NCBI GenBank assembly: GCA_030630685.1
Contig: DAOVMN010000001.1
Coordinates: forward strand, 1 to 34,648
Length of the DNA stretch: 34,648 bases
Direction: 5' to 3'
From: Thermoplasmata archaeon
Lineage (GTDB): Archaea > Thermoplasmatota > DAOVMN01
The notes beneath the pieces are model-generated. The model worked only from the letters and a program-made list of their open reading frames with translations, was not told the origin of the DNA and ran no database searches. The position numbers were made by a program, and so were the translations under genes. Below, one piece after another: positions 8,481 to 27,636 of this stretch (positions within the stretch are counted from its first letter, which is position 1; each line of letters starts with the position of its first letter).

Positions 8481-8755
8481 AACTCGAGCCCCTTTGAGAT
8501 TGCTTCTCTTAGTTTGGGATTTGGATTAAAAACCCAGGTTATCCCATCTATGGTGAAGAGTATCTTATTACTCTCTTCGAGATATCTGAGAATTGTTTTT
8601 AGCCTATTATGGTTGACTTTTTTTGGAAGCATTCTTTTCAGTTCTGCGATTGTGATTACACTCTCATCCATATTTCGTAATGTCTCTTCCACCATAATGA
8701 CCGTATTGAGTGTCGGTGAGTGCTCGTATCTGTGTATGGCTTTTGTAGATGTCAT
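8477..8755 (-). CDS. Putative antitoxin / small DNA-binding partner of the toxin
   Basis: 92 aa. The 4-nt overlap with the toxin start matches TA operon architecture. No family was recognised by eye. Confidence 0.45.
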   Translation of the reverse strand: MTSTKAIHRYEHSPTLNTVIMVEETLRNMDESVITIAELKRMLPKKVNHNRLKTILRYLEESNKILFTIDGITWVFNPNPKLREAISKGLEL

Positions 8756-8855
8756 TCTATCACTCTTTGATATTAGTTAGTAATCATTATGTATCAAACA
8801 GTATAAATAGTTATCTTTTATGAGCCCCTTATGGAAAATTGCGTATAACTCAGTT

Positions 8856-8921
8856 ATATCCGACATCGATGTCGGATATCCTTCTGATTTGGTGGTATAT
8901 CCAAAGTCCATGTCGGATATA
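8856..8921. promoter_or_regulatory. Two operator-like palindromes sharing TATATCC...GGATAT arms
   Basis: 8856-8879 ATATCCGACATCGATGTCGGATAT is a perfect 24-nt palindrome. 8895-8921 repeats TATATCC-N12-GGATATA and contains a second ATGTCGGATAT (8910-8920), 41 nt from the first. Confidence 0.4.
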
Positions 8922-9004
8922 CCTACCTTTATCTGAAGATTTTTTCTCATGTTTGGCCTCTCTTTTATTCACCATTATTCCATTTAGCTCCCGCTCGTCT
9001 TTAG

Positions 9005-9206
9005 ACATCGAAGATTTCTGAGGACCGGCTGAGTGCGAAGCCATGAGGAAGCGAAGCTTCCGATTGCCGGTTGACGCAAAGCGTCGATAAGCCATGAGGA
9101 ACGAAGTTCTGAGTGGCGGTTGAGTATGCAATACTCGATAAGCACTCGGCAAGGCGTGAAGTGCGAAGCACAGAGCACCGGTTGAGCCTGAAGGGCTCGA
9201 CAAGGC
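9005..9206 (+). repeat. Tandem short-hairpin array B (about 8 hairpins)
   Basis: Stems and loops read directly: GGAAGC-gaa-GCTTCC (9047-9061), GACGC-aaa-GCGTC (9073-9085), GAAC-gaa-GTTC (9099-9109), GAGTAT-gca-ATACTC (9122-9136), GTGC-gaa-GCAC (9161-9171), GAGCCT-gaa-GGGCTC (9184-9198). Linkers are conserved: catgag, ccgg(t/a)tga, tcga(t/c)aagg. Confidence 0.75.
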
Positions 9207-9573
9207 CCACCACGGTTCCCCTATCACGGATCATCAGTTCAAGGCCGCGGTGCGAACAGGTGTAACATTGGATTCTTAAGAGGTATTGAATAACAAATAT
9301 TTAATCTTTCTCTCTGCTTGCCCAAAACACCCAACCCAATCCCTCTTGGAGCCCCCTCTCCATGCTTTGTTCCCGCTCCCCTCGTGGGACCCTTCGCCGC
9401 ACCTTTCACTAAAATAGATACCAATCACACTCATGAGAGGCATGAAACATCACTCAGAGCCCTCGGTACGACCGCAAAGAGTACGCAAAGAAAACGACGA
9501 AATTGTGATCCTTATTCACTACATTACAGCTTTGTCCCAAAATAAACGAGGAAAAATAGAATACAGGATTAAT

Positions 9574-12054: not shown

Positions 12055-12056
12055 GT

Positions 12057-12082
12057 AAAAAAAGGAGCCGCTGGGGGGAATC
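12057..12082. repeat. 26-nt duplicate of the tRNA-Thr 3' end plus flank (att-like direct repeat; partner at 12216-12241)
   Basis: aaaaaaaggagccgctggggggaatc occurs identically at 12057-12082 and 12216-12241. The second copy is part of the intact tRNA-Thr. Confidence 0.8.
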
Positions 12083-12105: not shown

Positions 12106-12156
12106 CCTTGACGAGTGCTTCGCACTCATCCGGCTCTCAGAATTTCATTCTTCATG
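12106..12156 (-). repeat. Single two-hairpin unit of the hairpin-array family, inverted orientation
   Basis: The reverse complement reads catgaa-GAAT-gaa-ATTC-tgagagccggatga-GTGC-gaa-GCAC-tcgtcaagg. This is the same linker grammar as arrays B, C and D. Confidence 0.65.
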
Positions 12157-12224
12157 CCTGCACCAAAAACCTGTGCGACCTCGCTCCACTCTGTTCCGCT
12201 CGGTCCCACTTTATTAAAAAAAGG

Positions 12225-12296
12225 AGCCGCTGGGGGGAATCGAACCCCCGACCTACGCCTTACCAAGGCGTCGCTATACCGCTAAGCCACAGCGGC
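12225..12296 (-). tRNA. tRNA-Thr (anticodon GGU)
   Basis: Hand-folded. Acceptor GCCGCTG/CAGCGGC, anticodon arm ACGCC-TTGGTAA-GGCGT, T arm GGGGG-TTCGATT-CCCCC, discriminator T. A T7 run follows on the minus strand. Confidence 0.9.
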
Positions 12297-12367
12297 TTTT
12301 GGCAGTTACCGGAAGCCCGCAAACTATGGATTGTATAAAATTGTTTTGATGGACGGAATCGAGACAT

Positions 12368-12755
12368 GGGACTATGTTATAATTTAGCGAATAAGGCACC
12401 ACCCCTTCCTTATGTGGGATAGTTTATCTCCATAAATAGAATCCTAATCAGGCGGGTCGGAACCACACGGGGGGGGGCACCGGGGAGGCATGAGGAAGCG
12501 AAGTTCCGATTGCCGGCTAAACACGAAGTGTTCGTCAAGGAAGTACTCGGCAAGGCGTGCAAACTTATTTGCGCACCGATTGAATCCGCAGGATTCGATA
12601 AGGCATTCGGAAAGCAGTTCCGAATTCCGATTGAGGGCAAAGCCCTCGATAAGGCGGTGAGAAAAAATTCAGCCAGATTGGCATATAGAATCTTGTGAGT
12701 TTCTTATTCACTATGTCACTGACCTCCTTAATCACTGACTTACAACATAGTACCC
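12368..12755. mobile_element. MITE-like non-coding element: ~29-30-nt inverted terminal repeats bracketing hairpin array C
   Basis: gggactatgttataatttagcgaataagg (12368-12396) matches the reverse complement of 12726-12755 (gggtactatgttgtaagtcagtgattaagg). No ORF lies inside. Confidence 0.45.
12489..12654 (+). repeat. Tandem short-hairpin array C (6 hairpins)
   Basis: GGAA..TTCC (12494-12507), AACAC-gaa-GTGTT (12520-12532), GCAAA-ctta-TTTGC (12559-12572), GAATCC-gca-GGATTC (12582-12596), TTCGGAA-agcag-TTCCGAA (12606-12624), GAGGGC-aaa-GCCCTC (12633-12647). It shares 30+ nt blocks with array B. Confidence 0.75.
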
Positions 12756-12824
12756 GATTTTACAGAATCCGGGGATGCAAACATTTAAGTAATTTAGAAA
12801 TCTTTTGGAGATTAAGTGATTTGA

Positions 12825-13061
12825 ATGAGAGCTAAAAATTTAATGGATAGAATCACCATCAATCCTGAGGTAATGATTGGTAAACCAACCATCAGAGGGA
12901 TGAGAATCACGGTAGAGCAGATTCTGAAGGCTCTTGCCAATGGTGTAACAACCAAGGAGCTGCTCGATGATTACCCGGAACTCGAACCGGAAGATATTCA
13001 AGCGGCCCTTCTTTATGCGACCGAGTTGGTAAGTGAAGAACAGGTTTTTGCGGTAGCGTAG
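12825..13061 (+). CDS. DUF433-type small protein (putative antitoxin)
   Basis: ITINPEVMIGKPTIRGMRITVEQIL is the DUF433 signature. It is paired with a DUF5615/PIN-like gene 10 nt downstream. Confidence 0.7.
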   Translation: MRAKNLMDRITINPEVMIGKPTIRGMRITVEQILKALANGVTTKELLDDYPELEPEDIQAALLYATELVSEEQVFAVA

Positions 13062-13071
13062 GTGTCTCAGA

Positions 13072-13434
13072 ATGACTCATGGTAAGCCAAGATTTTTAGT
13101 CGATGTTTGTGTTGGCAGAAAAGTAGAAGATTGGCTTGTGAAAAACGGGTATGATATTAGAACTGTAAGGGAGATCAATCCTCGAATGAATGATAGGGAA
13201 GTATTGAAAATAGCAGTGATTGAGGGCAGAATGGTTGTAACAATGGATAAAGATTTTGGAGAACTTGTCTACAATTCTGGAATGGCCCACTCCGGAGTGT
13301 TACTTTTGAGGATCGAAGATGCCAATGCTAATGAAAAAGTAAAAACCATAGAAAAGATACTAACAGAGTATCAAGATATGTTGTCAAACAATTTTTGCAT
13401 ATTTCAAAACGAGAAACTTAGAATAAGAAAATAA
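13072..13434 (+). CDS. DUF5615 / Mut7-C PIN-like protein (putative toxin)
   Basis: FLVDVCVGRKV...VVTMDKDFGEL has the acidic-residue pattern of PIN-like nucleases. It has the conserved pairing with DUF433. Confidence 0.65.
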   Translation: MTHGKPRFLVDVCVGRKVEDWLVKNGYDIRTVREINPRMNDREVLKIAVIEGRMVVTMDKDFGELVYNSGMAHSGVLLLRIEDANANEKVKTIEKILTEYQDMLSNNFCIFQNEKLRIRK

Positions 13435-27607: not shown

Positions 27608-27636
27608 GGGACTATGTTGAAAGTTAGCGATTAAAG
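27608..27636 (+). repeat. Third copy of the 29-nt GGGACTATGTT... motif
   Basis: gggactatgttgaaagttagcgattaaag is 24/29 identical to 12368-12396. It is 25/29 identical (plus a 1-nt indel) to the reverse complement of 12726-12755. Confidence 0.6.

Follow-up and report, generated by a model that had tools for sequence, protein, structure and literature searches.

A mosaic 388-nt sequence bounded by the terminal inverted repeats of an IS and MITE family in a Thermoplasmata archaeon

In the genome of a Thermoplasmata archaeon, two inverted repeats of 29-30 nt face each other across 329 nt in the 529-nt divergent spacer between a tRNA-Thr gene and a DUF433/DUF5615 gene pair. The question raised by this locus is whether the repeats are the ends of a non-autonomous transposable element built around a structured core of hairpins, as originally predicted from the DNA alone, or whether they are copies of a regulatory motif. 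The stretch analysed, hereafter called the window, is 34,648 nt long and is contig C314 of a 2.67-Mb archaeal MAG of 519 contigs, whose GTDB class contains only two genomes.

A genome-wide family of 29-nt terminal repeats

The arms at 12368-12396 and 12726-12754 were recovered by a repeat finder as 29-nt sequences with 79 % complementarity, a spacer of 329 nt and an ungapped match of 23/29, which becomes 24/29 when base 12755 and a 1-nt gap are included in the right arm (GGG-ACTATG vs GGGTACTATG). By calculation, 0.02 inverted repeats that match at 23/29 or better across a spacer of up to 500 nt are expected by chance in the window. No ORF of at least 80 amino acids occurs in the 388-nt span, those present having 56-76 amino acids and running through hairpin repeats. 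The facing arms and the lack of an ORF between them were thus as predicted, and in having terminal inverted repeats (TIRs), small size and no coding capacity the window copy resembles a MITE.

A substitution-tolerant search of the MAG found 103 copies of the 29-mer. A weight matrix (PWM) built from these found 118 copies at 14 bits or more, compared with none in 1.5 Mb of shuffled sequence, both strands being searched. The further inverted pairs that had been proposed as a check on the element were found: 17-19 pairs face inward at lengths of 173-530 nt, and alignment of 15 of them resolved a canonical 173-nt MITE and discrete blocks inserted in the longer versions. Six copies are exactly 173 nt long, with a mutual identity of 80-94 %, and together with the variants they give the family the copy number of a MITE. 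Three kinds of block are involved: in the first, 24 nt from the inner half of the TIR at one end are duplicated; the second is a double hairpin of 44-48 nt at three different central positions; and the third, of 48 nt, lies near the other end. The arm identity of the window copy, 23/29, lies inside the range of the canonical MITEs (18-26/29).

Target-site duplications (TSDs) of 8-9 bp were found around several of the pairs. The flanks match in at least seven of eight positions in 6/19 pairs, where 0.37 were expected with permuted flanks (P < 0.0005); examples are the perfect TSD ATGATGGG of the MITE in C349 and AAAACCTG[C/G] of the MITE in C347. The 173-nt family is a genuine MITE family. With its 118 copies, inverted pairs, TSDs and the transposase described below, the 29-mer proved to be, as predicted, the terminal inverted repeat of a transposable element (IS) family. 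The solo TIR copies of the MAG have ordinary genes as neighbours, with no transposase gene beside them.

Five copies of the 29-mer are present in the window (Table 1), two of which, at 82-110 and 9510-9538, had been missed in the original prediction. The copy at 27608, said there to stand alone, does so; no partner was found within 1.4 kb, the best local alignment score being 9, in the chance range of 8-13. Similarly, no partner above chance was found for the 9510-9538 end in 8500-9505. The first 110 nt of the window match MITE interiors at 96 % identity. Their central segment has the opposite orientation to that in the canonical 173-nt MITE and is flanked by short inverted repeats, ACGCGGATGAC on one side and GTCATCCGTGT on the other.

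Table 1 Features of the window, the related IS relic, the contig pairs joined by 9-bp repeats and the end-to-end junctions
Feature	Position	Strand	Remarks
MITE end of canonical type, truncated by the contig start	1-110	minus	TIR 82-110; PWM 43.0 bits
Solo family end, more degenerate	9510-9538	minus	Points to hairpin array A; PWM 34.6 bits
tRNA-Thr	12223-12296	minus	
Left TIR, IRR type (GGGACTATGT...TAGCGAATAAGG)	12368-12396	plus	PWM 44.3 bits; identical 29-mer at C2:1585
Unique core beside the left TIR	12397-12485		12386-12516 matches C2:1691-1822 only, 86 %; no match to IS copies; no Rfam match
Nested hairpin array C	12486-12660	plus	Strict type-1 units 12576-12603 and 12627-12654; dozens of scattered BLAST matches genome-wide
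Right-end module, subterminal inner-motif repeat (12703-12717) and TIR	12654-12755	minus	100 % over 102 nt to C235:679-780
Right TIR, IRL type (GGGTACTATGTTGTAAGTCAGTGATTAAGG)	12726-12755	minus	1-nt insertion after GGG; PWM 37.4 bits; variant also at C235:780 and C347:2275
DUF433/DUF5615 gene pair	12825-13434		
Solo family end	27608-27636	plus	PWM 38.0 bits; 5/29 differences from left arm (24/29 match)
IS relic in the MAG	C492:230-493		Transposase C-terminal fragment 230-400 (E = 1e-16 to family profile, one TGA stop), then TIR 465-493
9-bp repeat AAGATTGAC	Y contig C105, X contig C221		
9-bp repeat CACGTTGGG	Y contig C141, X contig C176		
9-bp repeat ATTCAGCAC	Y contig C164, X contig C17		
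9-bp repeat CAGGATTGT	Y contig C199, X contig C76		
9-bp repeat CAAAACCTG	Y contig C347, X contig C15		
9-bp repeat ATTGGCCGT	Y contig C397, X contig C300		
Junction IRR-ATTAGACATA-IRL	L031:88-125		Terminal overlap of contig 101 nt
Junction IRR-TATTTCTCG-IRL	L032:102-140		Terminal overlap of contig 30 nt

The parent IS and its transposase

Two types of end occur in the MAG in identical form, X (GGGACTATGTCGCAACATAGTGAATAAGA, n = 14) and Y (GGGAGTATGTCGTAAGTCTGTGATTAAGA, n = 13), these 27 copies having 100 % identity over up to 140 nt. All are situated no more than 140 nt from the end of their contig and are directed towards the break, the sole exception being the Y copy in C199, which is about 170 nt from the contig end and has only the 30-nt TIR in common with the other Y ends. 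Comparison of the outer flanks joined six pairs of Y and X contigs by perfect 9-bp direct repeats (Table 1), and in a seventh pair, C217/C210, the repeat matches with a 2-nt offset. Since these 9-bp repeats join the contigs in pairs, X and Y must be the two ends (IRR and IRL) of one IS, present in approximately 14 identical copies with 9-bp TSDs. The interior of the IS is absent from the MAG bin, having collapsed in the assembly.

The Y end holds the start of an ORF, the 24 residues MQTPNANIFDSNLGGLDGNTSIYA, which are identical to the N-terminus of 604-amino-acid proteins encoded between the same TIRs in the metagenome contigs L030, L031 and L033; they are also the N-terminus of the closest-relative proteins P0005-P0007. 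Metagenome contigs containing the IS were found with a degenerate TIR pattern (four contigs) and by exact-protein look-up (five more). The complete copies, in L021, L022, L024, L030, L031 and L033, are 1952-2196 nt long; each is bounded by the same ends and contains one ORF, of 601-604 amino acids. The Y end is 91-95 % identical to the left ends of L030, L031 and L033 and to L023 (95 % for L023 and L033), and the X end is 80-81 % identical to the right ends of L023 and L033. In the MAG, the relic in C492 consists of a C-terminal transposase fragment followed after 65 nt by a TIR, in a right end where the inner motif is doubled. Since this relic joins the two, the 29-mer is tied to a transposase gene in the MAG organism itself. 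At the level of sequence, the 24-amino-acid ORF start, the 91-95 % identical ends elsewhere and this one relic link the TIRs to the transposase, and an autonomous partner with the same ends, as predicted for a MITE, is thus represented by the X and Y ends with their TSDs, by the relic and by the complete metagenome elements. A 35-amino-acid 'C-terminal' ORF in the X end was rejected as spurious, the ORF of the complete copies stopping about 300 nt before the IRR.

No TSDs were found around the IS in the metagenome contigs, probably because the flanks of these contigs are chimeric. The X and Y ends had no match in 60 relatives beyond the MAG itself, the exact IS subterminal sequence had no match in the metagenome contigs, and the degenerate TIR pattern had none in 185,579 species genomes.

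Two other arrangements of family ends were observed in the MAG. The segment C455:4956-7138 has the full IS length (2183 nt) and degenerate inward TIRs (25.8 and 32.6 bits), and contains no transposase and two passenger ORFs, one of 242 amino acids with no assigned function and a PIN-like one of 168 amino acids; it has no TSD. In the sequence C199:4380-4520, which continues in C36:1-141 and C402:3744-3884, a solo Y-type TIR is followed by a GC-rich hairpin and by a putative IS200/IS605-type TnpA C-terminus (...IRNYIERQ...) recognised by eye; the family end appears, on the same visual reading, to be abutted by a second kind of mobile element.

The transposase had no Pfam match at threshold, including Transposase_mut, and no NCBIfam match at threshold; the IS1249 model scored 35 bits, its cut-off being 300, and in 3/19 members the match to IS256 reached E = 2.5e-5. 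Further matches below the NCBIfam thresholds were to IS256, ISL3, IS256_N_4Cys, IS1/IS1595 Zn and IS6, each in a few members. The 19-member alignment shows no variation in the Cys/His clusters at 78-136 or at D205 and D257, and at least 90 % of the members have E471. The best Foldseek match of the AlphaFold model (pLDDT 71) was ISCth4 (6xg8/6xgw/6xgx; E = 7e-5, probability 1.0, TM-score only 0.24-0.38), a member of the IS256 family, followed by retroviral integrases. The predicted structure thus resembles a DDE (RNase H-like) fold as in a solved IS256 member, at a low TM-score. Residues ~525-585 of P0001 and P0002 (from L022 and L021) form a predicted C-terminal WYL-like beta-barrel, which was matched by Foldseek to the WYL domains of PafBC and BrxR. 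Distant full-length homologues exceed the Pfam WYL threshold and contain no Pfam DDE domain; a search of the family profile against PDB sequences gave only a marginal match to PafBC.

The transposase is read as a putative DDE enzyme of a new family, or of a deep branch near IS256/IS1249, rather than as an established member of IS256 proper. The family is rare: it accounts for 20 clusters, all unnamed, in a set of 5.8 billion proteins and, at E ≤ 1e-3, for 158 of 1.84 billion representatives, and it was essentially absent from 400 genomes of the phylum. No description of a fusion between a transposase and a WYL domain was found in the literature. The IS family appears to be undescribed; the MITE itself is an ordinary, known kind of element.

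Mosaic structure of the window copy

The two arms of the window copy correspond to different ends of the IS. The inner motif of the left arm, TAGYGAATAAG (TAGCGAATAAG), is that of the right ends of the full IS copies in L021, L022 and L024 and of the X end of the MAG, and the inner motif of the right arm, GTCAGTGATTAAG, is that of the transposase-proximal left ends in L022, L023 and L024 and of the Y end. The window copy accordingly has one IRR-type and one IRL-type end, both facing inward.

Each half of the unit has one other copy in the MAG, and no second copy of the whole was found in it by BLAST. The left TIR, the adjacent core and the first hairpin recur in C2 only, the TIR itself being identical there, and the right 102 nt recur in C235 only, as a solo end for which no partner above chance was found. 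Since the right half is 100 % identical to one locus and the left half 86 % to another, two histories are suggested. In both C2 and C235 the similarity breaks off precisely where the TIR ends, with different flanks beyond it, which indicates that the termini of the window copy have acted as transposon ends. As originally noted, no TSD surrounds 12368-12755, the best flank matches being 3/8 and 4/9.

The right end has a double inner motif, as in the C492 relic and in the 'duplicated' W ends of the MITEs in C82, C92, C135, C167, C266, C331 and C347, to which the right-end module is 77-85 % identical. Within it, 20-25 nt of a 25-nt stretch (GGAGGTCAGTGACATAGTGAATAAG) align at 92-100 % identity with a conserved part of the transposase gene in three IS relatives. 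This conserved stretch of the ORF (GTCAGTGAYRTAGTGAATAAG, ...VSDVVNKYPF...; L021:2185-2209, L022:1433-1457, L024:792-811) unites the IRL and IRR inner motifs and is almost identical to 12703-12727 of the window. It could be an internal binding site for the transposase.

The core at 12397-12485 matches none of the IS copies. Array C, which had been predicted to be the structured core of the element, belongs instead to a separate repeat family. The strict type-1 hairpin pattern occurs 94 times in the genome and never in a shuffled version. TIR pairs enclose only 6/94 of these units, and 14 are found up to 400 nt inward of some TIR, an overlap close to that expected if intergenic DNA is the sole location of both repeat classes. 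Alignment of the MITEs showed hairpin doublets cleanly inserted into the 173-nt form at three positions, one insert being common to the MITEs in C402, C349, C82 and C92:443 and another to those in C196 and C19, all at different loci. Because the hairpins are mostly independent of TIRs and form clean inserts shared across loci, they are an independent repeat family that invaded MITEs and was then copied along with them. The predicted link between hairpin arrays and mobility therefore holds only for hairpins carried as passengers nested in MITEs.

Two further observations concern the hairpins. At C2:1603-1702, a hairpin unit of ~77 nt lies within the inner edge of a TIR, with AGCGAATAAGG as an 11-nt direct repeat on both sides. 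The linker of the hairpins, CGATAAGG, is similar to the inner motif of the TIR, GCGAATAAGG, which may be the site into which the hairpin family inserts. In the window, a perfect 27-nt direct repeat (12056-12082 and 12215-12241), comprising the tRNA-Thr 3' end and its flank, brackets 132 nt with a hairpin unit at 12106-12133 on the minus strand, and looks like an att-type or a hairpin-associated duplication. L025, a contig of another MAG, terminates inside this repeat region, at 12080.

Other assemblies of the locus were sought by exact-protein look-ups with four neighbour genes. L026 is near-identical (99.94 %), and L025 and L027 end before the element; these assemblies, which either repeat the scaffold of the window or are interrupted contigs, revealed neither an empty site nor a variant of the window copy in another strain.

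Origin and significance of the window copy

The 388-nt sequence can be taken with good confidence to be a decayed, non-autonomous derivative of the ~2.0-2.2-kb IS, presumably mobilised in trans and filled with an unrelated core and hairpins. The original reading of the pair as a non-autonomous element is upheld in so far as the TIR family is real; the copy itself has no TSD and no second whole unit, is decayed or recombinant and is not demonstrably mobile. The 1-nt indel in its right TIR likewise speaks against an intact element. It is best described as a MITE-like derivative that is degenerate or recombinant, most likely an old or recombinant copy that presumably no longer moves.

The rival reading with the greatest weight, although unlikely, is that the window contains two independent solo ends, or a recombinant of two elements, that face each other by chance in a repeat-prone spacer beside the tRNA-Thr gene. 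The missing TSD would be explained, as would the separate recurrence of the two modules, the left one only in C2, at 86 % and with another right partner, and the right 102 nt as an identical solo end in C235. Solo ends are indeed common (9538, 27608, C235) and family members insert side by side (C266, C347). However, with ~1 copy per 22 kb, a partner within 400 nt and in the right orientation is estimated to occur in only ~1 % of cases, and the window pair combines an IRR-type with an IRL-type end, correctly facing inward at a MITE-like distance and with an arm identity typical of paired MITEs.

It is very improbable that the span is a structured non-coding RNA gene with the arms as a long terminal stem. 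Its fold is far more stable than those of shuffled sequences (z = -5.1), and the hairpin stems contain T-G (G-U) pairs that speak for one strand, but the opposite strand is equally stable (z = -5.1), as expected for DNA palindromes. Moreover, no Rfam match was found in 12290-12830 at E ≤ 1, the arms belong to a family of 118 transposon ends, and the interior combines repeats that differ in their history. The alternative offered in the original prediction, a shared promoter or regulatory motif (archaeal TATA/BRE-like or a repressor operator) upstream of genes, has the least to recommend it and can hardly be credited. The 12368 copy does contain TTATAATTTA, copies are intergenic, and that at 27608 is ~60-130 nt upstream of the glycosyltransferase gene. 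The TATA-like 'ttataattta' is, however, present in only 2/103 copies (the window and C2:1585), 17-19 inverted pairs with TSDs exist, where single copies at fixed distances from gene starts would have been expected of a promoter motif, 27 copies are IS ends with 9-bp TSDs across contig breaks, and full elements have a transposase between the same ends.

On the preferred reading, that of a decayed IS derivative, the autonomous IS would encode a transposase of ~600 amino acids with an N-terminal zinc finger, a DDE core distantly like IS256/IS1249 and a C-terminal WYL-like domain, and generates 9-bp target duplications, its ~14 identical copies having collapsed and broken the assembly. The transposase would recognise a bipartite end, consisting of the terminal GGGAC(T/A)ATGT and the inner (T/C)AG(C/T)GA(A/T)TAAG, and would mobilise in trans short non-coding derivatives, namely the 173-nt canonical MITE and its longer variants. 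The 388-nt copy, IRR-type at the left and IRL-type at the right, with an interior of a ~90-nt unrelated core and a nested hairpin array, would have lost, or never had, matching target duplications.

Transposition may follow a copy-out/paste-in route through an IRR-N9-10-IRL junction. Circularly permuted contigs consisting of the IS and a short spacer were present in two independent assemblies (L031 and L032, Table 1), which shows that there are molecules whose ends abut at a distance of 9-10 nt. Such junctions might stem from circles of an element of the copy-out/paste-in kind, as in IS256 and IS3, which transpose by this route with circle junctions, or from tandem insertions. Two of the ~14 IS copies (C266:88-154 and C347:2443-2508) lie back-to-back with a MITE end and exactly 8-9 nt outside it, far above chance, suggesting that IS insertion is targeted next to resident family ends, one TSD length outside.

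Prokaryotic MITEs include the Sulfolobus SM1-SM4 elements, the Neisseria Correia elements and pneumococcal RUP. Like these, the present family is non-coding and small (173-530 nt), shares its TIRs with a resident IS, has TSDs of 8-9 bp and is dispersed in many intergenic copies, the interior being unrelated to the parent IS beyond the ends. It differs in its nested inserts of a second repeat family and in the 24-nt duplication of the inner TIR motif, and the window copy differs in being a single-copy mosaic without TSD. The IS256 family has elements of 1.2-1.5 kb, transposases of ~400 amino acids and circle junctions. The partner IS is similar in its TIRs of ~30 bp, its 8-9-bp TSDs, the best structural match to ISCth4, the weak matches to the IS1249, IS256 and IS256_N_4Cys HMMs and the permuted contigs with an IRR-9/10 nt-IRL junction. 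Unlike IS256, it is ~2.2 kb long and its transposase has ~600 amino acids, an extra C-terminal WYL-like domain and no Pfam Transposase_mut domain, and falls below the curated HMM threshold. The nested interior, and only this, resembles REP/BIME sequences, its short hairpins, conserved at the base and variable at the top, being arranged in series between genes independently of TIRs, but here hairpin units were inserted in MITEs at three positions and then spread with the MITE.

For the MAG, these findings explain much of the fragmentation of the assembly, in which no fewer than 27 contig ends are due to the IS and many of the others to MITE ends. The intergenic 29-mers are selfish DNA and not regulatory signals, and two repeat systems can be separated, TIR MITEs, presumably moved by a DDE transposase, and hairpin arrays as independent riders. 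A broader proposal is possible but still tentative, and somewhat more likely to fail than to hold, namely that the partner is a new IS family in which the WYL domain, of a kind that senses ligands or nucleic acids, makes transposition signal-dependent and which preferentially inserts exactly one TSD length (8-10 nt) outside the resident ends of its own family, at the top of a hierarchy of IS, MITEs and MITE-parasitising hairpins. The IS family to which the results point is archaeal, rare and unclassified, its transposase is fused to a WYL-like domain and its insertion may be end-targeted; it merits description and an entry in ISfinder.
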